Origin: Candidatus Methylomirabilota bacterium | GTDB taxonomy: Bacteria; Methylomirabilota; Methylomirabilia; Rokubacteriales; CSP1-6 | Length of the DNA: 64,000 bases | Reading direction: 5' to 3' | Assembly: GCA_035635755.1 (NCBI GenBank) | Contig: DASQAK010000052.1 | Span: forward strand, 6,236-70,235 | Shown: one piece after another, positions 10,007-60,159 of the stretch | Layout of the letters: each line of letters starts with the position of its first letter | Position numbering within the stretch: the stretch's first letter is position 1 | Made by a program: the position numbers and the translations under genes | The notes under the pieces: model-generated | The model's input: only the letters and a program-made list of their open reading frames with translations | What the model was told of the DNA's origin: nothing | The model's database searches: none

Positions 10007-10040
10007 GCCACGCAGAATAGCAGCGGGGATGACCGCTTGC

Positions 10041-46679: not shown

Positions 46680-48220
46680 CTCTTGGTCTCCAGGACGAGC
46701 CGCGGGGCGGGGGGGGGCGGCGGGTCCGCGGCGTGCAGGCGGTTCCATTCCTTCTCGTAGCGCTCGATGCGGGCGATGTCCCGCCGGACCATCAGCTCAC
46801 GCAGCCCGTAGAGCTCGACGGCGTTGAACTTCTTGGAGATGACGGCGGTGACCCGCGTGGCATCGCCCAGGTCCAGCAGAAATGCTTCGAGGTCTCCGTC
46901 GTACTGGTCGAGGATGCGCTGCTTGTTCGCGTAGTACCACTCCGTTCCCGGATACGGGGTGGCGAAGAAGGGCTTGACGTTGAGGCCGAGGCGATTCCAG
47001 GCGCGGATGTTGTCCTTGAGGCTGTCGAAGTCCTCGTCGGGGAAGCCCATCATCTGGTTGGGGATGGGCCGGATACCCGCCTCGAGCGTCCACTTGAGCG
47101 AGCGCTCGTTGGTCTCGGGAGTGGCGCCCTTGCCGATGGTTTTCATCACGCGCGCGGAGAAGCTCTCGTAGCCGTAGACGAGATGCGAGCACCCCGCCTG
47201 CTTGATGGCTCTCAACACCTCGGGCGAGCAGAGGGTGGCGTGGCTGGTGCCGCCCCAGTGGACGCCACTGCACTTCTCGGGGTCGTGGGGGACGCCGTCA
47301 CGCACACACTGGGGCTGCAGGCCCTCCTCGATCCAGAGCTTTGCGATATCCGTCAGCCACTTCTTGCCCGAGAACTGGTGCATGGTCATGAGGTTCTCGT
47401 CGAGGAAGCCGATGAAGTCCACCCCGAAGCGCTCGCGAGCGTACTTGACGAGGTTGACGACGTAGCGCGGGCTGTGGAAGCGGATCTTGCGGTCGTAGGT
47501 GAAGGCGACGTCGTTCTCGCCCTCCGCGTTCTCCTGGTGCTGCATGTCGCCCGCGATGCCCAGGTGGAAGCAGAAGCGGCAGATGAGCGAGCAGCCGTAG
47601 CTGGCGTTGATGTCGAGGCGCCGCTGGGCGAGCATGCCCTCCTCGGAGTAGAGCGCCATGCTGTTCTTGAAGTAGACCTCGAGCGGGAAGAGCTCCCAGG
47701 CCGGATAGGGCAGGCTGTCGAGATCCATGAGGAGGGGCTGCTCCGGGTTCAGCCTGGTCTTGCCCGAGGCGTCGCGCCAGATCAGCCCGGGAACGGCCGC
47801 CCAGTCGCGATTCCCCCCGTCCACCCGGCGAAGCAGCTCGGGAAAGGACACGAAGGCCTCGCCCACCACGCCCACGTCTATCCGAGGCAGGAAGCGCATG
47901 ATGTCGTGAGGCATGCTCGTGAGGAAGCCGCCCCCCGCCACCACCAGCGCCTGCGGGCAAAGCTCCCTGGCCATCTCGACGATCTGCTTGATCGAGCGGT
48001 ACGCCGTGGTGATGCCGCCGAGCGCGACCACGTCCCAGTGGTCCGCCTGCAGCACCTGGGCGATGACGGCATCCGAGGGGCGCCAGGCATTGTGGTCGTA
48101 CACCTGCACCTTGTGTCCCTGGCCCACCACGATGGCGGCGAGGAGGGCCATGCCGTAGGGCACATGACGCGGATCGTCCTCCTCGCGCATCAGCGGATTG
48201 ACGAACAGCACTTTAGCCAT
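46676..48220 (-). CDS. B12-binding domain radical SAM protein (class B radical SAM; putative methyltransferase)
   Basis: From 'MAKVLFVNP' (AAGGA RBS). N-terminal cobalamin-binding domain. 'YGCSLICRFCFH' CxxxCxxC radical SAM cluster motif. Confidence 0.8.
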   Translation of the reverse strand: MAKVLFVNPLMREEDDPRHVPYGMALLAAIVVGQGHKVQVYDHNAWRPSDAVIAQVLQADHWDVVALGGITTAYRSIKQIVEMARELCPQALVVAGGGFLTSMPHDIMRFLPRIDVGVVGEAFVSFPELLRRVDGGNRDWAAVPGLIWRDASGKTRLNPEQPLLMDLDSLPYPAWELFPLEVYFKNSMALYSEEGMLAQRRLDINASYGCSLICRFCFHLGIAGDMQHQENAEGENDVAFTYDRKIRFHSPRYVVNLVKYARERFGVDFIGFLDENLMTMHQFSGKKWLTDIAKLWIEEGLQPQCVRDGVPHDPEKCSGVHWGGTSHATLCSPEVLRAIKQAGCSHLVYGYESFSARVMKTIGKGATPETNERSLKWTLEAGIRPIPNQMMGFPDEDFDSLKDNIRAWNRLGLNVKPFFATPYPGTEWYYANKQRILDQYDGDLEAFLLDLGDATRVTAVISKKFNAVELYGLRELMVRRDIARIERYEKEWNRLHAADPPPPPAPRLVLETKR

Positions 48221-49226
48221 GATGGTCCTTCGCGGCGGTCTCGAGGAATGCGTCCAGAGTGGACGTGATGACGCCATCGCCGAAGAGCAGGCCGCCCTCG
48301 GTGCAGTTGAAGGTCTGGCAATCGGCATCGCGGGCCATCTCGAGAAAGACCTCGCGAAACCAATGATAGGTCGGGTCGCTGAACCACACTTCGCGCGTCA
48401 CTGGATTCTCGGTGTGGATGAAGGCCTCGCGGTGCCGGGCCTTCAGGAGGTCGACGAGTTCCCGGAAGTATTGCGTCTTCTCGTACGGCGTGTCCGGAGC
48501 ATATCCCAAATCGATGCCCACGAGTCCGATGCGCCGCTTCCCCAGCACGGCATGCGTGAGCACCCATGCCGAGGTGCCGACGTTGCCGCCGCCATTGAGA
48601 CAGGGCAGGCCGTTCATCTCCCAGAGACGACGCGAATGGCTACCGGGCTTGTCATAGTCGTCGTACATCGGGTTCCACCAGTAGAGTTCCATGCGCGTCT
48701 GCTGGCAACGCCGCACCACCGCTGGCGCCGCGGAGGTCGCCGCGGCCACCTTGATCTTCGGCCCGTACGTATCGACGAGGTCGACCAGCGTGCTGTTGGC
48801 GCCAAGCTCATCCTCGCCATGGACGGAATCCATCTCCTGGCGGCGGAAGTAATCGTCAGCGGGGACCTCTGTCAGCCTCGGGTCGCCGAACCAGCGGACG
48901 ATACGGTCCGGATGCGGGTCCACGCTCACCACAACATGAGGCACGACGCCCGCCCGCAAGCAAGCTCCGAGCGCCCCGTCAGCGGCAACGATGGTGCCGG
49001 GGAAGTTTGAGTCGCGCAGCCGCTCGATGCTTTGGCGTCGCCGAAGGCTTGGCCCAGCGCCCACGACGACGGCGGTATCCCCCGTGCCGAGCTGCGCGTC
49101 ACGAAGCTCGAGAACAGAGCGTCCGATGTATGGCCGATTGTCCTCGGCGTTCTTGAGGCCTTCGCTCGCCACATGCTCGAACGTGGCCGCCTCAAGCTCG
49201 CGGGCGATCTTTCTTCCCAGCTCCAT
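48213..49226 (-). CDS. DUF115 / MptE-like (motility-accessory-factor Maf-like) protein; putative nonulosonic-acid transferase
   Basis: 337 aa; 'TAVVVGAGPSLRR...TIVAADGA...VVVSVDPHP' matches the DUF115 Rossmann-like core. Confidence 0.55.
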   Translation of the reverse strand: MELGRKIARELEAATFEHVASEGLKNAEDNRPYIGRSVLELRDAQLGTGDTAVVVGAGPSLRRRQSIERLRDSNFPGTIVAADGALGACLRAGVVPHVVVSVDPHPDRIVRWFGDPRLTEVPADDYFRRQEMDSVHGEDELGANSTLVDLVDTYGPKIKVAAATSAAPAVVRRCQQTRMELYWWNPMYDDYDKPGSHSRRLWEMNGLPCLNGGGNVGTSAWVLTHAVLGKRRIGLVGIDLGYAPDTPYEKTQYFRELVDLLKARHREAFIHTENPVTREVWFSDPTYHWFREVFLEMARDADCQTFNCTEGGLLFGDGVITSTLDAFLETAAKDHHG

Positions 49227-49563
49227 CCTGACGCCCTTTCGCTGTTCTATCTTCCGTATCCGCTCGGCTCGCTGTCCTGCTGGTCGCCTCGCTTGCGGCT
49301 GCGGCTCCTCCGGCGGGACGCGCTTTCGCTGGTCCGTCTTCCGTATCCGCTCGGCTCGCTGTCCTGCTGGTCGCCTCGCCTGCGGCTGCGGCTCCTCCGG
49401 CGGGCTGCGCCTCGCCCTGCCACATCAAACTCTTCTTGCTCACGAAGCAGATGCTGCCTCCGAGACGCGAGAGGGCCTTCTTCTCGAATTCATCGGTCGA
49501 GTTCGCGGCATCCCCCTTGTCCTCGATCTTCGCGTCAACCTTGTAGTTGCCCTTGAGGAACTC
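49192..49563 (-). CDS. small protein (123 aa) with N-terminal charged domain and 2x 29-aa Ala/Gly/Ser/Thr-rich tandem repeats
   Basis: Perfect RBS AAGGAG 7 nt before ATG. Very high GC3 in the N-terminal half. 'MPEFLKGNYKVDAKIEDKGDAANSTDEFEKK...' then repeats 'PAGGAAAAGEATSRTASRADTED'. 3' end overlaps DUF115 start by 35 nt. Missing from the obvious track reading because it lies inside a longer artefactual ORF. Confidence 0.5.
   Translation of the reverse strand, partial: EFLKGNYKVDAKIEDKGDAANSTDEFEKKALSRLGGSICFVSKKSLMWQGEAQPAGGAAAAGEATSRTASRADTEDGPAKARPAGGAAAASEATSRTASRADTEDRTAKGRQDGAGKKDRPRA
49247..49420. repeat. tandem direct repeat, 2 x 87 nt (~95% identical) inside the small ORF
   Basis: 'ccgtatccgctcggctcgctgtcctgctggtcgcctcgc' recurs with 87-nt period. 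In frame (29 aa). Confidence 0.85.
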
Positions 49564-49571
49564 CGGCATGC

Positions 49572-50240
49572 TCAGCTCCTTTTCGCGATCCGCCCGCCCG
49601 TGCTGTCGCCGTTGCCCGCGGGCGAGGCCAGGCGCCTCAGCGTGAGGAACTTCTCGGGCGGCAGACCCAGGCGAACCAGGCCCGCCACGTGCCGTTCGGG
49701 CCTTTCGAAGGTGGCGACGACGATGCCGTCGACATCGGCCATGGGCAGCTCGGAGACCGGCCGCACAGGCAGGCCCAGGAAATGGCCGCCTCCCTCCCCC
49801 GCGAAGATCCCCACCGGCTCCAGCCCGAATTCCTTGAGGGTGAGGTAGGCCAGCTCGGCCGCCTCCCCGGTTCCGCAGAGCGCGATGCGCTTCATCCCGT
49901 TCCGCCCCAGCTGCCCCATGGCCTCCCGGAGATTGTCGCGGGTCCGCCGGTAGAGCTGCAGTGAATGTCCCATGTACTCGTAGGTCAGGCGGGCCTTCTC
50001 CGTAGCGCCCTTGGCCGTGAGCATGTAGCGGAGGCGCTTGCGGGCGGAGGGCTTGCTGGAGAACTCCCGTATCTTGATGAAGCCCTTCCCGGCCAGCCGC
50101 TTCAGATACAGGTTGGTCAGCCCGAGGGCCACGCCCATTCGCGCGGCGAGGGCGCGCTGGGTCAGGGGCGCCCCCTCCTCGATGGCGGTCAGGATCTCGA
50201 GCTCGCGCTCGATGTGACGCTCGATGGCCATGGCGTTCAA
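49572..50240 (-). CDS. winged-helix transcriptional regulator with C-terminal Rossmann-like (Rex-C-like) domain
   Basis: 222 aa; 'LTQRALAARMGVALGLTNLYLKRL' wHTH; C-terminal 'KRIALCGTGEAAELA...GIVVATFERPE'. Confidence 0.55.
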   Translation of the reverse strand: MNAMAIERHIERELEILTAIEEGAPLTQRALAARMGVALGLTNLYLKRLAGKGFIKIREFSSKPSARKRLRYMLTAKGATEKARLTYEYMGHSLQLYRRTRDNLREAMGQLGRNGMKRIALCGTGEAAELAYLTLKEFGLEPVGIFAGEGGGHFLGLPVRPVSELPMADVDGIVVATFERPERHVAGLVRLGLPPEKFLTLRRLASPAGNGDSTGGRIAKRS

Positions 50241-50275: not shown

Positions 50276-51784
50276 CTAGGAGCTCGCTCTCAGGAAGGCC
50301 ACGAACCTCCGCGGGTCCACGAGCTCCCTGGCGTAGCGGAGATTGTCCGTCCCGGTGTGAGTCAGCCAGAGAAACCCCGTGTAGACGCCGAGGGCAAGCA
50401 CGAATCCCCCGGCCAGGGCTGCCGGCTCGGGCGCGCCGGCGGCGGCGAGGCCTTCCCGGGTCGCCTCGTTGACGGCCACGAGCACGGCGAAGCCCGTCAG
50501 GTACGCCACGGTCACCCGCTGGAAGCCGATGCCGGCCAGCTCGCGCGTCCATCGGATGAACACCCAGCAGGGGAAGATCACCATGAGCAGACGCACGGCC
50601 GCCGCCCCCGTGCCACCGAGGGTCGGAACCAGTACCACCATGGCGACAAGATAGACGGCCAGGCGCAGGAGAACGACGCGCACGAACCGTCCGTGCTGAT
50701 CCATGGCGTAGAGGATGAACTGATACGGATTGAAAGCCGTCTGGGCCAGGGCCGCCAGCACCAGGACCATGAGCGGCGCGACTGCGAGAAGGAAGCGCCG
50801 GCCATAGAGCAGGGTGAGGATGGGCTCACGCAGCGCCCAGAGGCAGAAGGCGGCCGGCACCGCGATGAAGAGTAGCCGGTCCATGGCCGCGGCGAAGACC
50901 CGCCGGCTCTCGGCCGCGGCCTCGAGCCCCGGTGTGGCGAAGAGCCGAGAGAGCCGCGACAGGAGAAGCTGGAAGGGATACTGGTTGAGCCGGCCGAGCA
51001 CTTCCCAGAGTGCCCGCGCGACCTGGTAGTACCCGGCGGCGGTCAAGCCCGCCCAGCGCGCGACGAGAACACGATCGAGAGAGTCCTGGAGCATGCCGAT
51101 GGGACTCGTGATGAAGAGCGGGCGCGCGTAGCTCCAGTAGGCCTGAAGCGTCGCGCGATCGGGACGACGCAGCGCGATGCCTCTGCGGAAGACGAGGATG
51201 TACCCGCCCACGAGGATCTCCGTGGCGCCCTCGACCACCAGGGCCGCCGCCACCCAGCGGATGTCGGGTGCCCAGATCAGCACGGTCATCGTCACCGCGA
51301 AGCGGAGCCCCTTGCCGGCCACCTCCGTGATCGCGTGGGCGCTCGCCCACTCCCGTCCCACGAAGGCGACGCTGAGGGTCGCCGCGAGATTCATCAGGAG
51401 CTGGGCGACGAGGACGAAGAGAACGACCTCGAGGGGCACGCTCGTCGGGATCACCAGGGATCCCCAGCGGGCCGCTGCGAGCACGAGGAGGAGGGCCGCG
51501 ACCTGGATCACCAGCTGGAGCGCGGCCATGGTCCCCACGCAGCGGCCGAGGTCGCCGCCTTCCGCCACCCGCTTCTGGTGCGCCTGATTCAAGCCGGGGA
51601 GCAGGAACGCGGTCAGCATCCCCACCAGGCCCATGCTGAAACCCAGGATGCCGAGGGCGTCGGGTCCGAGCCAGCGGGCGATGAGGATCGTGGTGACGAA
51701 GCCGAAGGCGCTGGCGAGACCGGTGCCGAAGAAGAGGACGACAGACTTCCTGCCGAGATTCCCCTCGTGGCTCACGGCGTTCAA
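50276..51784 (-). CDS. polysaccharide biosynthesis protein / oligosaccharide flippase (Wzx-like, MOP superfamily)
   Basis: 502 aa, ~12-14 TM helices. 'RWLGPDALGILGF' typical of PST-family flippases. Confidence 0.75.
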   Translation of the reverse strand: MNAVSHEGNLGRKSVVLFFGTGLASAFGFVTTILIARWLGPDALGILGFSMGLVGMLTAFLLPGLNQAHQKRVAEGGDLGRCVGTMAALQLVIQVAALLLVLAAARWGSLVIPTSVPLEVVLFVLVAQLLMNLAATLSVAFVGREWASAHAITEVAGKGLRFAVTMTVLIWAPDIRWVAAALVVEGATEILVGGYILVFRRGIALRRPDRATLQAYWSYARPLFITSPIGMLQDSLDRVLVARWAGLTAAGYYQVARALWEVLGRLNQYPFQLLLSRLSRLFATPGLEAAAESRRVFAAAMDRLLFIAVPAAFCLWALREPILTLLYGRRFLLAVAPLMVLVLAALAQTAFNPYQFILYAMDQHGRFVRVVLLRLAVYLVAMVVLVPTLGGTGAAAVRLLMVIFPCWVFIRWTRELAGIGFQRVTVAYLTGFAVLVAVNEATREGLAAAGAPEPAALAGGFVLALGVYTGFLWLTHTGTDNLRYARELVDPRRFVAFLRASS

Positions 51785-51853: not shown

Positions 51854-51895
51854 GATCAACTCAGCCCTCGCCTCGGGCTGCGCCCTCAGCTCGAA
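51854..51895 (-). repeat. conserved intergenic element, copy A (reverse orientation)
   Basis: Reverse complement 'TTCGAGCTGAGGGCGCAGCCCGAGGCGAGGGCTGAGTTGATC' matches the family consensus. Confidence 0.6.
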
Positions 51896-51975: not shown

Positions 51976-52018
51976 TTCGAGCTGAGCGGCCCCGCCGCGA
52001 GGCGAGAGCTGAGTAGAA
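51976..52018 (+). repeat. conserved intergenic element, copy B
   Basis: 'TTCGAGCTGAGCGGCCCCGCCGCGAGGCGAGAGCTGAGTAGAA'. Conserved arms flank a GCGGC-CCC-GCCGC hairpin. Confidence 0.6.
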
Positions 52019-52090: not shown

Positions 52091-52858
52091 ATGGGCCTGA
52101 GAAAGCTCGCGAAAAGGGTCCTCGGCGTCCAGCGTCAGCCGACGTACTACCTGCCGTGGCTGACGCGCCCTCATCTCCAGTGCGCCCTCGTGCTCAGCAA
52201 CGTCGAGTCGCGCTTCAAGGTCGGCTACAACCGCGGGAGCTTCCCGGTCTCCGTGGTCCAGTACGATGCCGACGGCGCAGTGGCGGGTCGGCACGAGGTG
52301 ACGCTGCCCGACGCGGTGGAGGCCGTCGAGCTGCCCCTGCCGTCCGCTCCGGGCGGATGCGGCTTCGCCACGGTGAGCGGCGAGCGCATCAACTCCGATC
52401 TCTACGTCACCCTCTCCGACGGCCTCGCCTATACCGCGACCCACGGTCGCGGCGAATTCATCGAGCGCTATGCGCTCCCGGGCCGCTTGCTCCTGGCCAT
52501 GATCGGCGGGCTCCTGGGACTGGCGGGCCGAGCCATTCCCGCCTTCGTTCGCCACCAGTACGCGTACGTCGGCCCCGACAGCCGCTCGCACCTGCTCGTG
52601 ATGAACCTGTCCAACGTGACGAACCGCGTCCGCGTCGTGGCCAGCTGGGAGGGGCGCGTCCTTGGCGCCCGGCTTCTGCGGCTCCCTCCCATGGGCTCGA
52701 CGCTCCTGGACATCGGGACGTTTGGCTCAGCCTCGGGCGGCACCGCCACGGAGGTGTGGAGGCTCCGGCTCGAGGGCGCGGCGTGGTTCAACCTGTACGT
52801 CGTCGGCGCGGGTGCCCGGAACCTCGAGGGGCCGCTGTCGCTGATGCATGTCAAATAG
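52091..52858 (+). CDS. hypothetical protein (255 aa), no recognisable family
   Basis: Diverse composition and high GC3; first gene of plus-strand operon. Stop overlaps the next gene's ATG by 11 nt. Confidence 0.5.
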   Translation: MGLRKLAKRVLGVQRQPTYYLPWLTRPHLQCALVLSNVESRFKVGYNRGSFPVSVVQYDADGAVAGRHEVTLPDAVEAVELPLPSAPGGCGFATVSGERINSDLYVTLSDGLAYTATHGRGEFIERYALPGRLLLAMIGGLLGLAGRAIPAFVRHQYAYVGPDSRSHLLVMNLSNVTNRVRVVASWEGRVLGARLLRLPPMGSTLLDIGTFGSASGGTATEVWRLRLEGAAWFNLYVVGAGARNLEGPLSLMHVK

Positions 52859-53561
52859 CGTCTCGGCCCTGCTCTCGGCCACGTTCTACGAGCCGGGCTA
52901 CGACCACCTCGTCGAGCTGGTGCACCAGCGCGATCCGGAGGCGCGCCGCCGGCTCGCCTCCCTCGATCTCTCCGCCTACGGCCCCGACGGCAAGCTGCTC
53001 CTCGAGCATGGCCTGGACACGCGGGAGGAGACGCTGGACCTGGGCGCCCTCCTCGCCCCCACCGCGCGCGAGCACGGGCGCGTCATGGCCGTGTTCGACG
53101 CGCGCTACGAGGAAGACGCGTTTCCCTACCGCCCCCACCACTACGCCTACGTCCATCGCGCGGGCTCCGCCACCCCGGCGCTCTACTATGCCGTCAGCGC
53201 GGCCCTCGGGGGCGTGCCCGACCGGATCGGGGACATGTCCCGCATCAACAACTTCGACACCTATGTCTTCCGTCGCGGGCCCCACGCCGCGCGGTACTCG
53301 GTCATGCTCGGCAACGTCGGCCGCTTCGCTCCCACAGAGGCGCAGGTCTTCGCCTACTACGGTGCCGAGCGCGTGGAGGAGACGGTCCCCCTCGGACCCC
53401 GAGCCCATGCCGAGGTCGCCCTCGCGCCCGAGCGCGGCGGGCAGCCCCTCACCCGCGTCGAGACCAAGTCGCTCTTCCGTCTGGCCGGATACGTGGCCGG
53501 CCGTCGGGACCCCTCGGGCGACCTCGTGCTCTTCGACCACCTCTTCACGTTTTTCAAGTGA
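52848..53561 (+). CDS. hypothetical protein (237 aa), no recognisable family
   Basis: Coding-like composition; His/Tyr-rich segment 'YRPHHYAYVHRAG'. Confidence 0.5.
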   Translation: MSNSVSALLSATFYEPGYDHLVELVHQRDPEARRRLASLDLSAYGPDGKLLLEHGLDTREETLDLGALLAPTAREHGRVMAVFDARYEEDAFPYRPHHYAYVHRAGSATPALYYAVSAALGGVPDRIGDMSRINNFDTYVFRRGPHAARYSVMLGNVGRFAPTEAQVFAYYGAERVEETVPLGPRAHAEVALAPERGGQPLTRVETKSLFRLAGYVAGRRDPSGDLVLFDHLFTFFK

Positions 53562-53588
53562 TTTTCGAGCTGAGACGTGGCCACGCAC

Positions 53589-53633
53589 TTCGAGTTGAGC
53601 AGCGAAGCTGCGAGACGAGAGCTGAATTGATTC
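53589..53633 (+). repeat. conserved intergenic element, copy C2 (partial copy C1 at 53564-53588)
   Basis: 'TTCGAGTTGAGCAGCGAAGCTGCGAGACGAGAGCTGAATTGATTC'; central CAGC-gaa-GCTG hairpin. Confidence 0.6.
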
Positions 53634-53647
53634 CGCAGGCGTGGCAA

Positions 53648-53692
53648 TTCGAGTTGAGCGGTGAAGCCGCGAGACGAGAGCTGAGTGGATTC
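53648..53692 (+). repeat. conserved intergenic element, copy C3 (partial copy C4 at 53693-53717)
   Basis: 'TTCGAGTTGAGCGGTGAAGCCGCGAGACGAGAGCTGAGTGGATTC'; central GCGG-tgaa-GCCGC hairpin. Confidence 0.6.
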
Positions 53693-53712
53693 ACGGCGAG
53701 GCGAGTGCTGAT

Positions 53713-53928
53713 TTGACCCACGGTCCCGAGCCCGAGGACGCGCTCATCCTCTGCTACTGCACCATGTTGACCGTCGGCGAGCTGCGCCGGGCCTGCGCGG
53801 CGGGCGGCTGGCCGCTGCCCGGCAAGGAGAACACCGGCCGGCTGTGCACCGGGTGCCTCGGAGACCTCCTCTACTGTCAGTCGCGATTCGAGAGGCCGCC
53901 GCGAGAGGCCCGGAGCGTCGGCCCGTGA
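53713..53928 (+). CDS. BFD-like [2Fe-2S]-binding mini-protein (71 aa)
   Basis: Cys pattern 'CYC...(35)...CTGC' resembling BFD/[2Fe-2S]-binding domains. TTG start lies inside repeat copy C4. Stop overlaps GTG of next gene (GTGA). Confidence 0.4.
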   Translation: MTHGPEPEDALILCYCTMLTVGELRRACAAGGWPLPGKENTGRLCTGCLGDLLYCQSRFERPPREARSVGP

Positions 53929-54851
53929 CGACGCGCGACGAGCTGCGCCTGCACGATGTCCCCTGTCCGCTGTGCGGGGGGAGCCGCGTCTCGCCCGTGA
54001 TGCGTGACGAGGGGTTCCATCGGATCAGCGGTCCCGGCCTCGTGGCGTGCACGAGCCTGGACCACGGCGCCTTCGGGCAGATCGTGGCCTGCGATCAGTG
54101 CGGCCTCCGCTTCCGGAGCCCGCGCGAGGACGACGCCACCATCCTCTCCCTCTACGCCGACGTGGAGGACCACGTCTACCTCGAGAACGAAACGGCGCGG
54201 GTGGCGACCTTCTCGCGCGCCCTCTCGCGCCTGGAGAGACATGTCCCCGTGCGCGGACCGCTGCTGGACGTCGGCTGCTATACCGGCGTCTTCCTCGACG
54301 TCGCCGCGCGGGCGGGCTGGCCGGTGGTGGGGCTCGAGCCCAGCCGCTGGGCCGCCAAGGCCGCCTCCGCCAAGGGGCACCGCGTGCACACGGGCACGCT
54401 CGACACGGCGCCCTTTCCCCGGGGATCCTTCGCCGTCGCCACCATGTGGGATGCCCTCGAGCACTATGCCGATCCCGTGGGCGAGCTGAGGCGCGCGAGG
54501 GATTTCGTCCGGGACGGCGGCTATCTCGTGCTGACCACGATGAACATCGACACGCTGGCCGTGCGGATGCTCAGGAAGCGCTGGCCCTGGTACATGCGCA
54601 TGCACCTGACCTACTTCACGCCCGAGACGGTGGAGGCGGCCCTCGGCCGGGCGGGCTGGCGCCTGGCCCACCGCCATGGCTACGGTCACGTGGTCACCTG
54701 GGACTATCTCCTGCTCAAGCTCGCCCCTTACTGGCACGGAGGGAGCGCGGCCGGCCGCGCGGGCCTGCGTCGGCTCGGCCTCTCCCACCGGACGCTCACC
54801 GTCGACCTCGGCGATTTCATGACCGTCTACGCGGAGAAACTGCCCGGATGA
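53925..54851 (+). CDS. class I SAM-dependent methyltransferase with N-terminal Zn-ribbon
   Basis: 'CPLCGG...CDQCGLRFRSP' Zn-ribbon. 'LLDVGCYTGVF', 'VRDGGYLVLTTMN'. Paralogous architecture to 37664..38584. Confidence 0.75.
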   Translation: MTTRDELRLHDVPCPLCGGSRVSPVMRDEGFHRISGPGLVACTSLDHGAFGQIVACDQCGLRFRSPREDDATILSLYADVEDHVYLENETARVATFSRALSRLERHVPVRGPLLDVGCYTGVFLDVAARAGWPVVGLEPSRWAAKAASAKGHRVHTGTLDTAPFPRGSFAVATMWDALEHYADPVGELRRARDFVRDGGYLVLTTMNIDTLAVRMLRKRWPWYMRMHLTYFTPETVEAALGRAGWRLAHRHGYGHVVTWDYLLLKLAPYWHGGSAAGRAGLRRLGLSHRTLTVDLGDFMTVYAEKLPG

Positions 54852-55594
54852 CCACTCGCCTCGTCGTCCTCGCCTACAACGAGGAAGCGGGCATCGGCCA
54901 GAGCCTCGCGGCCATCCACGGCCTCGGCCTTCCCGACCTCGACGTCATCGTGGTGGACGACGGCAGCACGGACCGCACGGAGGCGATCGTGCGCCAGATG
55001 AAGGCGACCGTTCCCCTCGAGCTCCTCTCCCACGAGGTCAACCGCGGCGTCGCCGCCGCCTTCGACACCGGCCTCCGCCACGCCGCCGCCATCTCCAAGC
55101 CCGGGGACTTCGTGATCACCATCGAGGGCGACGGCACCAACAGCCTCCAGGCCCTCGGCCCCATCATCTCCCTCCTCGGTCAGGGCTACGACGTCGTGTG
55201 CGGGTCGCGCTACGTCCCCGGGGGCGGCTATCATGGCTTCCCGCTCGGGCGGCGGATCTGGAGCGTAGGCGCCAACCTCGTGATGCGCTGGTACTGCGGC
55301 CTCGTGCCCGTCAAGGACTACACGCTCTTCTATCGGGGCTATCGGGCGGAGCTCCTGCAGGAGGCCTTCCGGCGCTACGGGCGGCGCTTCATCGAGGCGC
55401 AAGGATTCTTCGCCAACATCGAGATACTGGTGAAGCTCTCGCGGCTCCGGCCGCTGCGGGCGGCCGAGACTCCCGTGGTCTACGCCTACGGCGCGAAGCG
55501 CTCGGGGAGCAAGATGCGCGTGTGGCGCAACCTCAGCGAGTACCTGCGCTTCTTCGTCCGCGACTCGCGGCGGCCCTCGCGGCCCGGCTCCTGA
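54848..55594 (+). CDS. glycosyltransferase family 2 (polyprenyl-phosphate glycosyltransferase-like)
   Basis: 248 aa; 'RLVVLAYNEEAGI...DVIVVDDGSTDRT'. ATGA overlap with the methyltransferase stop. Confidence 0.8.
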   Translation: MTTRLVVLAYNEEAGIGQSLAAIHGLGLPDLDVIVVDDGSTDRTEAIVRQMKATVPLELLSHEVNRGVAAAFDTGLRHAAAISKPGDFVITIEGDGTNSLQALGPIISLLGQGYDVVCGSRYVPGGGYHGFPLGRRIWSVGANLVMRWYCGLVPVKDYTLFYRGYRAELLQEAFRRYGRRFIEAQGFFANIEILVKLSRLRPLRAAETPVVYAYGAKRSGSKMRVWRNLSEYLRFFVRDSRRPSRPGS

Positions 55595-56630
55595 GCGTTC
55601 CCGGGTCGCGGAAGAGCCGCGGATTGGTACGTATCCACTCGTAGAGCCGGCGCACGCCCGCCTCCGGCGAGGTCCTCGGCCGCCAGCCGAGCACGCGGGC
55701 CGCCTTGCGAATGTCGCTGACGTACACCTTCTGGTCTCCGGGCCGCCAGTCGTCGTAGCCGACGGGCACGCGACGGCCCAGCAGCTCCCCGAGCATGTCG
55801 AGCAGCTCGAGGAGGGACATCGTGCTCGCGGGCCCGCCGCCGATGTTGAAGATCTCTCCGGCCGCGGCGTCGATGCGCCGGTAGGCCGCGCGGTAGGCGC
55901 GCACGAGGTCGTCGACGTACAGCACGTCACGGACCTGGCGGCCGTCGCCGAAGATGGTGATGGGACGGCCGTAGACGGCGGCCAGGGTGAACCAGGCGAC
56001 CCACCCCTGGTCCTCCATGCCGAACTGGCGCGGCCCGTAGATGCAGGACTTGCGGAAGACCACGGTCCGGAGCCCGTAAATGCGGCTGTAGTCCCGCACG
56101 TACTGATCGCCCGCCCCCTTCGAGCAGCCGTACGGCGAGTGGAAGTCCAGGGGAAACGACTCGGGGATACCTCGAGGCCAGCCCTTGAAGACGTGGCGCG
56201 TCCCCGCCCGCCGCGTCCGCACGCCTTCGAGCCCGCCATACACCTTGTTCGTGGACGAGAACACGAGGGCGGGCCGACGGCGCGAGGTCCGGATGGCTTC
56301 GAGGACCTCGAGGGTGCCGCCCGCGTTGACGGCGAAGTCGTCCCGGGGATTTGTCACGGAGGTGGTGACGGCGGTTTGGCCGGCATTGTGGATGACGAGG
56401 TCCGCCTCGCTCACCAGCTCGGAGAGGCGCCGGCGTGGCCATCGGATGTCTCCCCGCACGATGCGCACGCGACGACCGTGGGAGGCGGCGAGCCAGCGGG
56501 CATTGGCCTGGGCGCCCGGACGCGAGAAGTTGTCGAAGACGGTGACCCGGGCGCCCGAGCGCAGGAAGCCGTCGGAGACGTTGGAGCCGATGAAGCCTGC
56601 GCCGCCGGTCACGAGCACGCGTGTGGGCAC
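55533..56630 (-). CDS. NAD-dependent epimerase/dehydratase (extended SDR; CDP/dTDP-sugar epimerase-like)
   Basis: From GTG with GGAGGA RBS. '[13 protein letters not shown]', 'YGCSKGAGD', 'SCIYGPRQFG'. Convergent ~60-nt overlap with the plus-strand GT2 3' end. Confidence 0.8.
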   Translation of the reverse strand: MPTRVLVTGGAGFIGSNVSDGFLRSGARVTVFDNFSRPGAQANARWLAASHGRRVRIVRGDIRWPRRRLSELVSEADLVIHNAGQTAVTTSVTNPRDDFAVNAGGTLEVLEAIRTSRRRPALVFSSTNKVYGGLEGVRTRRAGTRHVFKGWPRGIPESFPLDFHSPYGCSKGAGDQYVRDYSRIYGLRTVVFRKSCIYGPRQFGMEDQGWVAWFTLAAVYGRPITIFGDGRQVRDVLYVDDLVRAYRAAYRRIDAAAGEIFNIGGGPASTMSLLELLDMLGELLGRRVPVGYDDWRPGDQKVYVSDIRKAARVLGWRPRTSPEAGVRRLYEWIRTNPRLFRDPGTLRSRAARAAASRGRRSAGTR

Positions 56631-56643
56631 CGGGATCCTCCGT

Positions 56644-58269
56644 TCAGACGGTGTTTCGGCGATACAGGCGGAAGACGTGATCGCCACCTGCCCGCACCGT
56701 CTCGACAAGCGTGAAGTGCCGGGCCAGGAGCGTGTCGATCCGGGCCACCAGCTCGACGTAGGGGCGGCGCCCGCCGTAGAACTGGAGGACGTTCGGCTCG
56801 ATCACGGCAAACCGCGCGTCGCTCCCCAGCCACCCCTCGAGCTCGTCCGCGCCCCACATGCCAGCCCGATGGTAGCGCTGCTTGTCGCGTGAGCTCGTGA
56901 ACACCATCAGGTGCTGGTGGAATTGCCGGAGGTAGCTCTGCCGGCCCGCGAGATGGAGGGGCAGCGGGTCGCCCAGCAGAAACACCCGTCGTTCGCCGCT
57001 TGGGATGACGGCGGCGATCCGGGCGGCCACCGCGCGCAGCGCGGGGATCTCGGCCTCCGCGGGCACGATGCGCCGCGGCAGGTACGGCGAGCGATGGACC
57101 CACGGCGAGACGATGAGGGCGAGAAGGAAGGCGGCCGCGACGAGACGACGAGGCGTCGCGGACAGCTCGAGTCGCCCCCACGCCTCCGCGAAGAGGCAGC
57201 CGATGACGATGACGAGAAGGGGGGCAATGGCCCCCACGTACGCGTAGCTCTGCTTGACGTACGGCCCCACGATGACGAACTGCCAGGCCACGAGGTACCA
57301 GAAAAGCCAGAAGGTGAACCACAGGCCCGTGGGTCGCCACGGCGCCGTCGAGATCCGCCCCTTCCACGTCCGCAGTGCCTCGAGGGCGCTCAGTCCGACG
57401 AGGGCGACCATCCAGATCGCATAGCGGCGCAGGAAGAAGGCGAAGGACTTTGCCATGCCGGCGAGCCGCCCGAGCGGGCTCGGATCCCATGGGATGTCCG
57501 TGTAGTCGGAGACCCACACCGCGGCGGGATCTTCCATCAGGTTATGCCAGGAGTAGTAGCCCATGGGCTCGACCCACGCGCGCACGATCGGCATGTACGC
57601 GAGCATCTTCCAGTGCTGCCGGTCCCACACGAAGAAGAGGAGGGGGATGGAGGCGGCCACGGCTACCAGGCCGGCCCGTCGCGCCAGGGAGCCCGCGCGA
57701 AACACCGTGTACGCGAGGGCGAACGGAATGGCCGGCCAGTAGTGGGGCTTCACGAGGAAGAGGGCGGAGAAGACGGCCATGGCGAGGAGATCGCGCCCGG
57801 GCCACGCTGTACAGAACAGGATGTAGATGGCGAGGAGCGTAAGCGCGGCCACGAGGGGCGAGAAGTGCGCGGTGGCGAAGTAGCCCATGACGAGGCCGTG
57901 GGTGCAGAACAGACCGCACGCCGCCACCCCCGCCAGCCTCCCGCCCCAGCGCGCCGCCAGCGCGAAGATCAGGACGACCACGAGCGCCCCTACGAGGACG
58001 GCGAGGAGCCGGGCCACGAGCAGGCTGGGTCCGAAGATCGCCTGGGAGAGGCCGAAGAAATAGAAGGGCAGGGGCACCCACTGCCCGGTCATCTCGTCCT
58101 GGTAGAGCGTGATGTCGCCCCGGACGAGCAGGGTGCCCAGGGCCAGATACTCGGCCTCGTAGTCATGATCCACGAGCACCCAGGCGAGCAGGACGGCCAC
58201 GATCAGGAAGGCGATCACACAGCAGGCGAGCAGCATCGGGCCGCCTGACGCCGGCGCGCGGCCGGTCAT
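56644..58269 (-). CDS. GT-C-fold membrane glycosyltransferase (PMT/ArnT-like), paralogue of 38593..40188
   Basis: ~541 aa, many TM helices; shared motif 'LYQDEMTGQWVPLPFYFFG'. Start ATG 58269 or 58236. Confidence 0.6.
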   Translation of the reverse strand: MTGRAPASGGPMLLACCVIAFLIVAVLLAWVLVDHDYEAEYLALGTLLVRGDITLYQDEMTGQWVPLPFYFFGLSQAIFGPSLLVARLLAVLVGALVVVLIFALAARWGGRLAGVAACGLFCTHGLVMGYFATAHFSPLVAALTLLAIYILFCTAWPGRDLLAMAVFSALFLVKPHYWPAIPFALAYTVFRAGSLARRAGLVAVAASIPLLFFVWDRQHWKMLAYMPIVRAWVEPMGYYSWHNLMEDPAAVWVSDYTDIPWDPSPLGRLAGMAKSFAFFLRRYAIWMVALVGLSALEALRTWKGRISTAPWRPTGLWFTFWLFWYLVAWQFVIVGPYVKQSYAYVGAIAPLLVIVIGCLFAEAWGRLELSATPRRLVAAAFLLALIVSPWVHRSPYLPRRIVPAEAEIPALRAVAARIAAVIPSGERRVFLLGDPLPLHLAGRQSYLRQFHQHLMVFTSSRDKQRYHRAGMWGADELEGWLGSDARFAVIEPNVLQFYGGRRPYVELVARIDTLLARHFTLVETVRAGGDHVFRLYRRNTV

Positions 58270-58273
58270 GCCC

Positions 58274-59005
58274 TCAGGCCTTGCGGGCAACGAACACGTT
58301 GAGGGTGAAGGTTCGCGCGAGAGGCCGCCAGTGACCGAGCCAGCCCTCCAACTTCCGCGTGGCGGGAAAGACATTGTGCACGAATGGCGGGAAGCAGCCC
58401 ACGGTAGTGACGCGGCACGCGCGGAATCCCGCCGCCTCGAACCCGCGGCACACGCGGCCCGGCCATACCCGCACGATGCCGCGCTCGACCCGCCAGCTCC
58501 GTCGGGGGTGCATGGCCAGATGGACGTACCACTGGGGGTTCCAGGGATTGGGCTCGAGGAAGACGGCCCGGCCGGCCGCTCTCAGACGCTCGAAGGCGCG
58601 CGTCGCCACCGCGCGGACGTCGGGCACGTGGTGGAGGATGTGGCCGCCCACCACCGCGTCGAACTCCCGCCCTCTCACGCGAGAGAGCGTGGTGGCGTCG
58701 TCCTCGACCAGGGTGAGGCTCCCCCGCTCCGGATGCTCGGCGGTGAGTCGCTCGAGATACTCGATCGATCGTCGCGAGATGTCCACCGCGGTGACGCGGC
58801 AGCCCCGGTCGAGCAGGGGCAGCGTGAAGCGGCCCCCGGAGGCGCCCAGCTCCAGGATCCGCTCGCCCCGCCGCGGGTCCACGGCCTCCAGGAAGCGATC
58901 GAGCACGAACGCGAAGTACGGATTCGCCTGCTGGAAGTTCTCGTCGTACTCGTCCGCGGTGGCGTCGTAGAACCGACGCTGCACGTCCTGCCAGTCAGAA
59001 GGCAT
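58274..59005 (-). CDS. class I SAM-dependent methyltransferase
   Basis: 243 aa; 'ILELGASGGRF', 'GRAVFLEPN'. Confidence 0.75.
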   Translation of the reverse strand: MPSDWQDVQRRFYDATADEYDENFQQANPYFAFVLDRFLEAVDPRRGERILELGASGGRFTLPLLDRGCRVTAVDISRRSIEYLERLTAEHPERGSLTLVEDDATTLSRVRGREFDAVVGGHILHHVPDVRAVATRAFERLRAAGRAVFLEPNPWNPQWYVHLAMHPRRSWRVERGIVRVWPGRVCRGFEAAGFRACRVTTVGCFPPFVHNVFPATRKLEGWLGHWRPLARTFTLNVFVARKA

Positions 59006-59214: not shown

Positions 59215-60159
59215 GTGAACCTCTACGACGATTTCCGCCCCGATGTCGTCGCTCTCCTCAAAGACCAAGAGGCGAAGCTCCCCGCCCCCGACGGGCAGGC
59301 GCGGAGCGGTGACAGGCTGGGCCCGCTCGGCCGCCTGCGGAGCCTCGCCGCCCTCTACGCGCTGGGGGCGCAGGTCAAGACGGGTCTGCACCGGCGTCTG
59401 GTCCACGCCGATCTCCGGCTCGGGTGGTTCGAGGAGTTCCAGAGGTACTGGATGGGCGAGCTGGGCTGTCGTCCCATCCACCCTCACGACTTCTACTTCC
59501 TCTCCGGCGTCTATCGCCAGCGCGCCCAGACCCTCTACTTCGAGCACCTCGAGCGCCCCGACCTCGCCTCCGACGACAAGCACCTGGATGCCTGGCGCGA
59601 TTCGCGCATGGTCTCGTACCTGTTCCTGCACGCCTATCGCCTCGCCCTTTCCCCCCTCCGCGTGCATCCCTTCGCCCGCTTCATCCCGCGCGGCGGCCGC
59701 GTGGCCGAGTACGGGTGCGGCGCCGCCCCCATCGTGACCGCCCTCGCCCGTCACTACCGCCACCTCGATCTCCAGCTGGTGGGCGCCGACATCCCGCACC
59801 TGCTCTTCCACTACGCGCGCTGGAAGTTCCGCGGGGACCGCTTCGTGAGCATGGTGCCGATTGTCCCGAACGACGACACGCCCCTGGCGGGGGAGTACGA
59901 CACGATCTTCTGCCTCGAGACCTTCGAGCACCTGCCCCGCCCGGTCGCCGTGGTCGAGCATCTCTACCGCGTGTTGAAGCCCGGCGGCTGCCTCGTCTTC
60001 GACTATGTCCGCTCCGACGGCACCGGGCTCGACACGGCCGCCGCGCTCCGCGATCGCGTCCCCGCCCTCGAGCTCATCCTGAGGCGCTTCGACATCGTCC
60101 AGGGCCGCGTGACGACGGAGGGCGTCCACGTCGACGCCACCGTGGCGCGGAAGCGCTGA
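59215..60159 (+). CDS. class I SAM-dependent methyltransferase with ~130-aa N-terminal extension
   Basis: 'VAEYGCGAAP' motif I, 'IFCLETFEHL', 'LKPGGCLVF'. Confidence 0.65.
   Translation: MNLYDDFRPDVVALLKDQEAKLPAPDGQARSGDRLGPLGRLRSLAALYALGAQVKTGLHRRLVHADLRLGWFEEFQRYWMGELGCRPIHPHDFYFLSGVYRQRAQTLYFEHLERPDLASDDKHLDAWRDSRMVSYLFLHAYRLALSPLRVHPFARFIPRGGRVAEYGCGAAPIVTALARHYRHLDLQLVGADIPHLLFHYARWKFRGDRFVSMVPIVPNDDTPLAGEYDTIFCLETFEHLPRPVAVVEHLYRVLKPGGCLVFDYVRSDGTGLDTAAALRDRVPALELILRRFDIVQGRVTTEGVHVDATVARKR

Follow-up and report, generated by a model that had tools for sequence, protein, structure and literature searches.

A conserved three-gene cassette encoding two undescribed protein families and a BFD-like mini-protein in glycan clusters of Candidatus Rokubacteria

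The window analysed here, a stretch of 64,000 nucleotides from a Candidatus Methylomirabilota contig, contains five plus-strand open reading frames (ORFs) flanked by minus-strand genes at about 40 kb–51.8 kb and 55.5 kb–59 kb. A sequence-only reading had presented them as one module of five genes, two of them of no recognisable family, in which a ferredoxin-like mini-protein would be the partner of a methyltransferase and a GT2 glycosyltransferase. Which of these genes belong together, and what might their products do? The five ORFs, their overlaps and the array of repeat elements lie in the sequence where that reading had placed them. The ATG of ORF2 begins 11 nt inside the end of ORF1 (ctgATGcATGtcaaaTAG), and the frames of ORF1, ORF2 and the methyltransferase have a GC3 of 0.89–0.91 with GC1 > GC2. 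The first genes to be considered are the following:

50276–51784, minus strand: Wzx-type flippase, divergent from ORF1 (Pfam Polysacc_synt, 2e-16)
52091–52858, plus strand: ORF1, 255 aa, undescribed family
52848–53561, plus strand: ORF2, 237 aa, another undescribed family, invariably the next gene after ORF1
53713–53928, plus strand: mini-gene for a 71-aa BFD-like mini-protein, with a TTG start and a CxC…CxxC motif

The conserved trio and its glycan-cluster setting

The conserved unit consists of three genes, ORF1, ORF2 and the mini-gene, and not of five. This trio recurs about 30 times in metagenome-assembled genomes (MAGs) of Candidatus Rokubacteria and is also present in four highly diverged metagenomic lineages, its hosts being uncultured soil bacteria. 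In support of the first reading, ORF1 and ORF2 are conserved as a pair elsewhere: they stand side by side (tblastn, 33 loci) and overlap in practically all loci whose sequence extends far enough. In L001–L006 the whole trio has overlapping starts and stops. In the divergent lineages (L034, L035, L036 and L039), the three products measure 220–261, 220–237 and 73–82 aa, respectively, with an ORF2 identity of 23–42%. The Cys motif is encoded exactly once per locus, always 3′ of ORF2 or of one intervening methyltransferase. The conserved partner of the mini-gene is ORF2, with which it shares a 4-bp overlap in relatives (aaATGAcc in L006). The pair occurs without the mini-gene in seven Rokubacteria loci and the mini-gene is frameshifted in two, showing that the ferredoxin is not an obligatory component; in L018, ORF1 occurs by itself.

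In nearly all cases the trio is found in a glycan cluster for nonulosonic acids (NeuB/NeuC/PglD/CMP-transferase). In 23 of the 33 non-redundant loci, NeuB is encoded no more than 10 kb away, and at least one of NeuB, NeuC, PglD and CMP-transferase is present in 26 of them. A census of neighbours in 25 loci counted DegT (17), epimerase (15), UDP-sugar dehydrogenase (11), GT4 (10) and flippase (9). The trio usually adjoins a flippase or exporter, and the flippase is its most frequent orthologous neighbour, found beside it in 13 loci at 30–95% identity, including the distant L034. Legionaminic and pseudaminic acid clusters with Maf-type transferases (Campylobacter leg/ptm) offer the closest parallel to these surroundings, with NeuB, a NeuC-like epimerase, a PglD-like acetyltransferase, a CMP-transferase, a GFO-type oxidoreductase, DegT aminotransferases, a CBS-nucleotidyltransferase and an MptE-like protein around the trio. 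To our knowledge, nothing equivalent to ORF1, ORF2 or the BFD-like gene is present in clusters of the Campylobacter type, and literature searches gave no example. The trio may be an accessory of clusters for nonulosonic acids, i.e., legionaminic or pseudaminic-acid-like sugars.

The neighbouring methyltransferase, GT2 and their block

The two remaining plus-strand ORFs are best considered together with the genes that follow them:

53925–54851, plus strand: class I SAM methyltransferase with an N-terminal four-Cys ribbon (CxxC…CxxC; Methyltransf_23, E = 8e-27), first gene of the block
54848–55594, plus strand: GT2 glycosyltransferase, 248 aa (Glycos_transf_2, E = 9e-24)
55533–56708, minus strand: NAD-dependent epimerase/dehydratase (Epimerase, 1e-48), block member, convergent with the GT2
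56644–58374, minus strand: GT-C-type membrane glycosyltransferase (PMT_2, 7e-5, weak and below the cut-off), block member
58274–59005, minus strand: second class I methyltransferase (Methyltransf_11, 2e-13), last gene of the block
59215–60159, plus strand: 314-aa methyltransferase (orthologue comparison across loci)

If the five plus-strand ORFs were one operon, the mini-ferredoxin would support a redox-dependent step in which the methyltransferase and GT2 modify a polyprenyl-phosphate sugar. Overlaps join these genes in the window and in L006, the mini-gene stop with the methyltransferase GTG (cccGTGAcg) and the methyltransferase end with the GT2 start (ATGA); no plus-strand terminator was found within the five genes, and some methyltransferase often adjoins the trio. 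However, the GTGA link is restricted to a single lineage, represented by the window and L006, the methyltransferase and GT2 are missing from most trio loci, and the methyltransferases adjoining the trio in distant lineages are mutually non-orthologous. Moreover, orthologues of the methyltransferase and GT2 (73–85% identity, the methyltransferase aligned from residue 1) lie in L007 and L009 on the opposite side and strand, where epimerase orthologues (73–75% identity) adjoin GT2 and are accompanied by those of the GT-C protein (56–57%) and of the second methyltransferase (67–69%); relative to the window, all five genes are inverted and have changed sides with respect to the trio. They form a separate, portable five-gene block, and the single-operon view, which we consider very improbable, is largely refuted by synteny. 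Of the module first proposed, the five ORFs are real; the conserved unit is the trio, and the mini-protein is paired with ORF2 instead of the methyltransferase and GT2. In the window, the 5-kb block displaces from the mini-gene the 314-aa methyltransferase, whose orthologue lies on the same strand directly 3′ of the mini-gene in L004, L015/L017, L024 and L029.

The block would be a module of the polyprenyl-phosphate-sugar type that landed beside the trio in the window. The best partial NCBIfam matches of the GT2, PpgS (47 bits vs. a cut-off of 370) and the dolichyl-phosphate hexose transferase family (DPhHxTase, likewise partial), recall PpgS/Rv3779, ArnC/ArnT and dolichyl-phosphate hexose transferases, and as in systems that combine a polyprenyl-phosphate sugar synthase with a GT-C enzyme, the GT2 travels with a GT-C membrane protein and a nucleotide-sugar epimerase/dehydratase. 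Unlike in those systems, the block includes two methyltransferases, and the scores are all far under the equivalog cut-offs. The GT2 has no membrane segment (maximum KD19 = 1.24).

The mini-protein and the repeats around the trio

Like Bfd (PDB 4E6K) and Fer2_BFD proteins, the mini-protein is a stand-alone polypeptide of about 70 aa with four Cys arranged as C-x-C … C-x2-C. These residues (C14, C16, C45 and C48) are invariant and all align with the ligand Cys of Pseudomonas aeruginosa Bfd through the motif CxCxx[VL]Txxx[IL]RxA + GxxCxxC, in agreement with the earlier naming of this ORF. Unlike Bfd, the mini-protein has extra conserved Cys (C55 is invariant too and C28 nearly so) and a W-P-L-P segment, and the gene that its own gene consistently accompanies is ORF2 of a glycan cluster and not one for a bacterioferritin. 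Fer2_BFD is the only Pfam family matched by any member, below threshold in 20 of 31, with E = 0.096 and 13.5 bits vs. a cut-off of 26 for the protein of the window; the divergent members gave no match whatsoever in the family profile search, nor did the mini-protein profile match any solved structure in the PDB. The protein is classed as BFD-like by motif alone.

The mini-protein could instead bind zinc and act as a structural subunit or adaptor of ORF2 and not as an electron carrier, in which case the trio would perform no redox chemistry. The sub-threshold Fer2_BFD matches, their absence in divergent members, the lack of a PDB sequence match and the extra conserved C28 and C55 are compatible with such a role, as is the absence of a reductase gene from the trio cassette and its vicinity. 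Nevertheless, the motif fits Bfd position by position, with all four ligand Cys aligned, and no other Pfam family is matched. We consider the zinc-binding role quite unlikely.

Short repeats lie on either side of the ORF1/ORF2 pair in the window:

51860–51895, minus strand: inverted, slightly shorter repeat copy in the spacer upstream of ORF1 (reverse complement TTCGAGCTGAGGGCGCAGCCCGAGGCGAGGGCTGAG)
51977–52012, plus strand: REP-like element 5′ of ORF1 (pattern search)
53562–53712, plus strand: lineage-specific REP-like insertion of ~150 nt, at the former overlap of the ORF2 stop and mini-gene start
53590–53625, plus strand: repeat copy in this 53562–53712 spacer (pattern search)
53649–53684, plus strand: repeat copy in the same spacer (pattern search)
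53676–53711, plus strand: degenerate third repeat copy (pattern search)

The inverted copy was read directly from the sequence, having been missed by the fixed-spacing pattern search, and shuffled window sequences gave zero matches to the pattern. Within the 64 kb the copies are confined to the region around the trio, and none occurs among 33 related loci. In L006, the spacer upstream of ORF1 is without the 51977–52012 element and the ORF2/mini-gene overlap has zero spacer. Comparison of the two loci indicates that the repeat insertion split this overlap in the window, leaving the mini-gene with its TTG start, where L006 and P0241–P0246 have Met; both its ATG and its translational coupling have been lost. 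Like REP/BIME sequences, the repeats are short, restricted to intergenic spacers, present on both strands and built around a small central hairpin kept via compensatory changes (GCGGC/GCCGC, GCAGC/GCTGC, GCGGT/GCCGC), and the insertion sits within an operon. Unlike REP/BIME sequences, they belong to no Rfam family, the array folds no more stably than shuffles (z = 0.22), and copies are found in one region only.

Because the insertion removed the ATG and the coupling to ORF2, the mini-gene of the window might no longer be expressed, the trio working as a pair. Its TTG has its nearest GAGG 11 nt upstream, and seven related loci manage without the gene. Against silencing, the ORF is intact and differs from that of L006, its closest relative, by 11 synonymous and 3 non-synonymous changes (dN/dS 0.084), i.e., it evolved under purifying selection, and its stop codon continues to share bases with the start of the methyltransferase gene. 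Bacteria can also initiate translation at TTG. We consider loss of expression unlikely.

ORF1, ORF2 and the putative function of the trio

Both ORF1 (dN/dS = 0.18) and ORF2 (dN/dS = 0.07) are under selection, and neither matches any family in Pfam, NCBIfam, PADLOC or the PDB sequences, so that the description of two real proteins of no described family is upheld. The 451 homologues of ORF1 are all unnamed or “hypothetical,” with just 72 cluster representatives among 1.84 billion, and the 411 homologues of ORF2 are named solely as hypothetical proteins of Candidatus Rokuibacteriota/Methylomirabilota. Paralogy of the two was not demonstrable. The AF2 model of ORF1 (pLDDT 92.7, pTM 0.90) has an N-terminal amphipathic helix, of hydrophobic moment 0.60–0.79 family-wide, and two beta-sandwich halves linked via a hydrophobic helix; that of ORF2 (pLDDT 84.7, pTM 0.86) likewise has two beta-sandwich halves. 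Invariant across the ORF1 family are P-W (22–23), T-H-G-R (117–120), N-x-S (172–174), Y236, S250, H253 and V254, the C-terminus reading HV(K/N) in all members; ORF2 invariants include H20, E23, H26, Y99, Y113, Y114, E174, E205, Y215 and H231.

The structure search suggested at the outset for both proteins returned TM1070 and ASRT as the only probability-1.0 fold matches, for ORF1 and ORF2 alike, and the resemblance is weak and domain-level (E = 4e-3 to 1e-2; TM 0.57–0.69 over about 110 residues), PF07100 not being matched by either sequence at E ≤ 1. Members of this ASRT/TM1070 (ASRAH) superfamily have been argued to bind sugars and to occur as dyads or tetrads, and have been proposed as sugar sensors that regulate neighbouring operons (PMC2739507). 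Like ASRT/TM1070 proteins (PDB 1NC7, 2II8), ORF1 and ORF2 are intracellular and set among sugar-metabolism genes; each comprises two sandwich halves, which would give four in a heterodimer, and ORF1 has a conserved Trp in the first strand and an Asn ending the second. Unlike them, they carry extra helices, and their strongest invariants (THGR, C-terminal HVK) are not ASRAH signatures.

This resemblance bears on two readings. On the one hand, ORF1 and ORF2 could be a non-catalytic sugar-binding sensor or chaperone that tunes glycan synthesis or export by contacting enzymes or the flippase, with the mini-protein as a redox or iron sensor. Such a role would suit the sole confident fold matches, the regulatory function proposed for the superfamily, the oppositely transcribed small island formed by the trio amid the surrounding operons of most Rokubacteria loci and the dispensability of the mini-gene in seven loci; however, the fold similarity is weak, the very high conservation, including numerous invariant His, Arg, Glu and Tyr residues, resembles that of enzymes, and in L035, L036 and L039 the trio genes lie on the same strand within a biosynthetic operon. 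We regard this sensor as possible, though rather unlikely.

On the other hand, our best guess is that ORF1, ORF2 and the mini-protein constitute a ferredoxin-assisted sugar-tailoring or sugar-binding complex, as suggested by the confident AF2 models, the ASRT/TM1070 fold matches, the Bfd Cys alignment and the amphipathic ORF1 helix. The cytoplasmic ORF1 and ORF2 proteins are probably made together as one complex, which the conserved amphipathic helix and the hydrophobic linker helix of ORF1 would keep at the membrane's inner face. A pocket whose walls carry invariant His, Arg, Tyr and Glu residues would bind a sugar, CMP-sugar or lipid-linked glycan, and the complex would perform a tailoring step with electrons delivered via the mini-ferredoxin. 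CMP-Neu5Ac hydroxylase, which tailors an activated sialic acid with the help of a [2Fe-2S] centre and electrons supplied from outside, provides a functional analogy only: its [2Fe-2S] cluster is of the Rieske type and built into the hydroxylase, and the enzyme has no sequence or fold relation to the trio proteins.

Taken as a whole, the explanation in which a three-gene accessory cassette of nonulosonic-acid clusters encodes a tailoring complex, next to a separate block and with a junction split by repeats, has in our judgement about an even chance of being correct. A redox-dependent sugar-modification step is plausible and, if real, would belong to the three trio proteins and to nonulosonic-acid chemistry in these uncultured soil bacteria.

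Gene layout and the repeat-bearing spacer

The window has a G+C content of ~70%, and five plus-strand ORFs are present between positions 52091 and 55594 as the sequence-only reading had claimed, at these coordinates:

52091-52858, plus strand, ORF1, 255 aa
52848-53561, plus strand, ORF2, 237 aa, with its ATG 11 nt inside the 3′ end of ORF1
53562-53712, repeat-bearing spacer of 151 nt
53713-53928, plus strand, mini-gene, 71 aa, TTG start
53925-54851, plus strand, methyltransferase, 308 aa, with its GTG overlapping the mini-gene stop as GTGA
54848-55594, plus strand, GT2, with its start overlapping the methyltransferase as ATGA

The overlap of ORF1 with ORF2, read there as translational coupling, and the GTGA overlap are both present. 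ORF1, ORF2 and the methyltransferase frame have a GC3 of 0.89-0.91, and their G+C is spread over the three codon positions as in genuine genes of this genome. The spacer carries copies of an intergenic repeat of ~36 nt, which consists of TCGAG(C/T)TGAGC, a small hairpin and GAG(A/G)CGAGAGCTGA, and the central 5-bp stem of which is kept by compensatory changes. The copies are as follows:

51860-51895, minus strand, inverted and shorter
51977-52012, plus strand
53590-53625, plus strand
53649-53684, plus strand
53676-53711, plus strand, degenerate

Within the 64-kb window, copies were found only around the trio formed by ORF1, ORF2 and the mini-gene; shuffles of the window gave no match to the pattern. 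No copy was found in 33 related loci, and the spacers of L006, the locus of the closest relative, lack the repeat, the element upstream of ORF1 included. The elements matched no Rfam family, and the spacer array folded as RNA no better than shuffles. The array does lie between ORF2 and the mini-gene as first described. In L006 the ORF2 stop overlaps the mini-gene ATG (ttttttaaATGAccgacggt), whereas the window reads tttttcaagTGA, then ~150 nt of repeats, then gatTTGacccacggt, which marks the array as having been inserted recently into this overlap. The insertion took away both the mini-gene ATG and its coupling to ORF2 and left a TTG. For annotation, the lesson is that ancestral gene overlaps can be masked by repeat insertions.

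A conserved trio in nonulosonic-acid glycan clusters

We show that ORF1, ORF2 and the 71-aa mini-protein, which bears a CxC…CxxC motif, are a selected, co-inherited unit tied to glycan clusters for nonulosonic acids, i.e., sialic-acid-like sugars. Homologues number 451 for ORF1 and 411 for ORF2, every one unnamed or “hypothetical”; an ORF2 relative of 97% identity, for instance, is listed as no more than a hypothetical protein of a Candidatus Rokuibacteriota MAG. In a scan of one genome per species, ORF1 relatives occurred in 28 loci, nearly all from Rokubacteria/Methylomirabilota MAGs, and we know of no cultured members of the phylum that hosts the trio. When 1.84 billion cluster representatives were searched exhaustively by profile, only 72 ORF1 relatives were returned, mostly fragments, so the ORF1 family is rare. 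The giant repeat proteins P0321, P0331, P0332, P0338, and P0339, also picked up by the ORF1 profile, were rejected as artefacts: the four that were scanned (P0321, P0331, P0332, and P0339) are LVIVD-type or low-complexity repeat proteins, and their matches are compositional since they match many unrelated Pfam models.

Gene tables of the homologue-bearing contigs list consecutive genes of 254-256, 236-237, and 71-73 aa with overlapping ends. Conservation of the first two as a pair is borne out by tblastn in all fetched loci, where ORF2 lies directly 3′ of ORF1 wherever the contig allows, with L018 as the sole exception. A motif search with the Cys pattern gave exactly one match per locus, always just past ORF2, in 22 non-redundant loci besides the window. 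The pair occurs without the mini-gene in seven loci (L014, L020, L025, L026, L027, L030, and L031), and frameshifted remnants of the mini-gene follow ORF2 in L029 and L032. In L018, ORF1 stands alone (9962-10687), with neither ORF2 nor the mini-gene downstream; this state and the L029/L032 remnants represent either cassette decay or assembly errors.

Some of the 72 ORF1 relatives are full-length and very divergent. The divergent lineages, one of them (L039) the only useful locus of a metagenome scan with alignment A11 (the scan with alignment A8 gave no match), have the following layouts:

L034, low G+C: overlapping genes for products of 261, 237, and 73 aa
L035: products of 219 (gene call at the contig start), 222, and 81 aa
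L036: products of 260 and 221 aa, followed by a methyltransferase and finally by a small ORF with the CYC motif in its true N-terminus
Contig of the homologue P0328: gene order as in L036
L039: products of 260, 220, and 82 aa

Order, sizes and overlaps are kept in divergent lineages where ORF2 identity falls to 23-42%, which is strong evidence for a functional unit, and dN/dS against L006 is 0.18 for ORF1, 0.07 for ORF2 and 0.08 for the mini-gene.

Two observations concern the distribution of the cassette. L009, L011, L012, and L027 are binned as Limnocylindria, Acidimicrobiaceae, Acidobacteria, and Binatia, and carry cassettes 57-63% identical to Rokubacteria versions, which suggests mis-binning or, failing that, a glycan island that was transferred laterally. 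In one MAG (CAVTGC01), the contigs L015 and L017 share the same cassette, ~20 kb of flanks and near-identical match tables, which reflects either a duplicated island or assembly/binning redundancy.

Upstream of the trio, the window encodes a NeuC-type epimerase (Epimerase_2, 1.7e-88), a CMP-transferase (CTP_transf_3), a PglD-type acetyltransferase (PglD_N/Hexapep), a GFO-type oxidoreductase and a Wzx flippase, together with these features:

41348-42790, NeuB-like synthase ORF
~42394-44340, minus strand, 647-aa protein with weak epimerase/GT matches
46676-48328, minus strand, B12-binding radical SAM enzyme, between the GFO-type oxidoreductase and the MptE-like protein
48213-49226, gene for an MptE-like (Maf-type) protein
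49572-50240, HTH regulator gene

The spacer between the last two genes holds a G+C-rich 87-bp unit present twice (49230-49404, 94% match). The 647-aa protein has counterparts of 590-660 aa near the trio in L001 (18639-20597), L034 (12985-14967, 31% identity), L035 (6110-7879), and L039 (3098-5008). This recurrent protein, with only weak matches to Epimerase_2, GT1 or Capsule_synth, is a candidate for the CMP-nonulosonic-acid transferase that such clusters would need. The B12-binding radical SAM enzyme is conserved in L004, L006, L010, L015, L018, and L024, and its position inside a nonulosonic-acid operon suggests that the sugar undergoes an unusual C-methylation or rearrangement.

The same setting recurs elsewhere. 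Of the 33 non-redundant loci, 23 have a NeuB homologue no more than 10 kb away and 26 contain at least one of NeuB, NeuC, PglD, and CMP-transferase, most of the others being cut by contig ends; in L035 and L036, NeuB and CMP-transferases belong to the operon of the trio itself. In a census of 131 neighbouring proteins, for which as many as three gene predictions were taken from either flank in 25 loci, the most frequent families were methyltransferases (19), DegT aminotransferases (17), epimerase/dehydratases (15), UDP-sugar dehydrogenases (11), GT4s (10), and flippases (9). The trio has a flippase orthologue next to it in 13 loci, L034 included, an ABC exporter lies directly upstream in L036 and the P0328 contig, and a KpsC/KpsS-like (Capsule_synth) protein does so in L039.

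The methyltransferase, the GT2 and their portable block

The methyltransferase and GT2 had been joined to the mini-protein as a single sugar-modification step, and this grouping is not supported by comparison with other loci. Orthologues of the methyltransferase (73%) and of the GT2 (82-85%) occur only in L007, L009 and the cut end of L006, and in L007 and L009 they lie on the other side of the trio, upstream of ORF1 on the opposite strand. Three further genes of the window have orthologues there:

55533-56708, epimerase/dehydratase, with its orthologue beside the GT2
56644-58374, GT-C-type membrane transferase
58274-59005, second methyltransferase

These orthologues keep the same relative arrangement, and 53925-59005 is therefore one portable five-gene block. 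The convergent stops of the GT2 and epimerase genes overlap by ~60 nt (55533-55594), so that the two convergent transcription units of the block have no intervening spacer or terminator. Relative to the otherwise syntenic L004, the window carries the block as an insertion that separates the mini-gene from a 314-aa methyltransferase (59215-60159), which lies directly 3′ of the mini-gene in L004, L015/L017, L024, and L029. A specific methyltransferase partner for the trio was also considered and rejected: trio-adjacent methyltransferases of distant lineages are mutually non-orthologous, and from one lineage to another these enzymes have nothing in common beyond the generic SAM-binding region.

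The methyltransferase is a class I SAM-dependent enzyme (Methyltransf_23, 94.3 bits against a threshold of 27, E 8e-27). The GT2 had been described as a polyprenyl-phosphate enzyme, of which the family assignment holds (Glycos_transf_2, 84.8 bits against 23.3, E 9e-24); its best partial NCBIfam matches are polyprenyl- or dolichyl-phosphate sugar synthases, and its scores fall far short of the equivalog thresholds (47 against 370 bits for PpgS, 45.5 against 375 for DPhHxTase). The one argument for the polyprenyl-phosphate type is the presence of the GT-C and epimerase genes in the same conserved block. The methyltransferase, the GT2 and the cluster around them all belong to known kinds and are ordinary examples of these, and in annotation the two genes are best grouped with the epimerase, the GT-C and the second methyltransferase, apart from the trio.

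Protein folds and possible roles of the trio

None of the three trio proteins matched a family above threshold in Pfam, NCBIfam, or PADLOC. The mini-protein had been called BFD-like, and the motif is where this description holds: C14, C16, C45, and C48 (C-x-C … C-x2-C) are invariant in 31 sequences and kept in L034, L035, L036, and L039, C55 is likewise invariant and C28 nearly so. Fer2_BFD (PF04324) is the only Pfam family matched by any member, in 20 of the 31 and always below threshold (best E 0.0033); the window protein itself reaches 13.5 bits against a threshold of 26 (E = 0.096), and three divergent mini-proteins had no Pfam match. A profile search of PDB sequences found nothing. With hhalign, the four Cys fall on the ligand cysteines of P. 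aeruginosa Bfd (sequence verified against PDB 4E6K) and the flanking motif is reproduced, at P = 0.009 and a probability of only 4%. The mini-protein is thus BFD-like in its motif and a candidate [2Fe-2S] protein.

ORF1 and ORF2, for which no family had been recognised, are undescribed families with no solved relative. Neither they nor their divergent relatives matched any Pfam family at E ≤ 1, PF07100 included, and the profile searches of PDB sequences with alignments A1, A2, and A4, that of the mini-protein among them, returned noise only. The AlphaFold-based approach proposed for them gave confident AlphaFold2 models (ORF1, pLDDT 92.7, pTM 0.90; ORF2, pLDDT 84.7, pTM 0.86). Both models consist nearly entirely of beta-strands and divide into two halves that resemble sandwiches; ORF1 has in addition an N-terminal helix and a long helix joining the halves. 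Foldseek found no global match in PDB or BFVD (TM ≤ 0.33 normalised to query), and matches to vicilin, GH2, complement C3, and antibodies were set aside as generic beta-sandwich noise. The only probability-1.0 matches, with TM values normalised to the target, were weak resemblances to single-domain proteins: for ORF1, 2ii8 (ASRT, TM 0.69) and 1nc7 (TM1070, TM 0.57), at E ~1e-2, and for ORF2, 1nc7 (TM 0.61-0.62, E = 4e-3). [quoted passage not shown] In the modelled N-terminal half of ORF1, strand 14-24 contains the invariant P22-W23 and N37 follows strand 29-36. None of the other three halves of ORF1 and ORF2 clearly shows such residues, and with no profile support either, we treat the resemblance of the models as a lead and not as membership.

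Paralogy of ORF1 and ORF2 was considered and not established by sequence: BLASTP between the two was negative, the full profiles aligned in hhalign colinearly over 209 columns but with a probability of 1%, and hhalign comparison of the four half-domains yielded nothing significant. Family-wide invariants of ORF1 are PW, THGR, NxS, Y236, S250, H253, and V254, with a fixed C-terminus HV(K/N), and those of ORF2 are H20, E23, H26, Y99, Y113, Y114, E174, E205, Y215, and H231; the GGVPDR loop of ORF2 is disordered in the model yet invariant in sequence. Hydropathy indicated no membrane-spanning segment in any protein, and the most hydrophobic stretch of ORF1 is the linker helix. The N-terminal helix of ORF1 is amphipathic throughout the family (moment 0.60-0.79 against a 95th percentile of 0.49), which together with the flippase and exporter neighbours suggests that the putative enzyme acts at the membrane.

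Nonulosonic acids decorate flagella, S-layers, and capsules, and the steps by which they are tailored are only partly known. In the reading we prefer, ORF1 and ORF2 are made together and assemble into a four-sandwich complex that would have a sugar as its ligand, and an enzyme built on the trio could tailor a CMP-nonulosonic acid or a lipid-linked glycan. An enzyme is favoured because of the dense invariant His/Arg/Glu/Tyr residues and the dedicated ferredoxin-like partner. In its full form, which we consider unlikely, the proposal is that ORF1 and ORF2 pair up as an enzyme of a new type, in which four ASRT-like beta-sandwiches carry a His/Arg/Glu site. This heterodimer would take electrons from a dedicated BFD-type mini-ferredoxin to hydroxylate, deoxygenate or otherwise redox-tailor, at the membrane and immediately ahead of flipping, the CMP-nonulosonic acid or lipid-linked nonulosonic-acid glycan; the trio would then be the bacterial counterpart of CMP-sialic acid hydroxylase by role, not by ancestry. 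A catalytic redox role taken on its own is doubtful, and the seven loci that lack the mini-gene indicate that the ferredoxin is non-essential or replaceable. The main rival, to which we likewise assign a low probability, is that ORF1 and ORF2 have no catalytic function and serve, like ASRT, as a sugar sensor or chaperone. Confidence in the overall best explanation, the preferred enzyme with its genomic setting, is evenly divided and rests almost wholly on the genomic part.

Literature searches on Rokubacteria and nonulosonic acids, and on BFD-like proteins and nonulosonic acids, found nothing relevant, and on these searches and to our knowledge no earlier account exists of ORF1/ORF2 combined with a BFD-like mini-protein in clusters of this type. 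The cassette is rare yet strongly conserved and reproducibly tied to such clusters. If it is an enzyme, it would bring a new fold and an iron-sulfur partner to the chemistry of sialic-acid-like sugars; if it instead senses sugars, it would represent a heterodimeric form of the sugar sensors proposed for the ASRT type, with a link to a ferredoxin.
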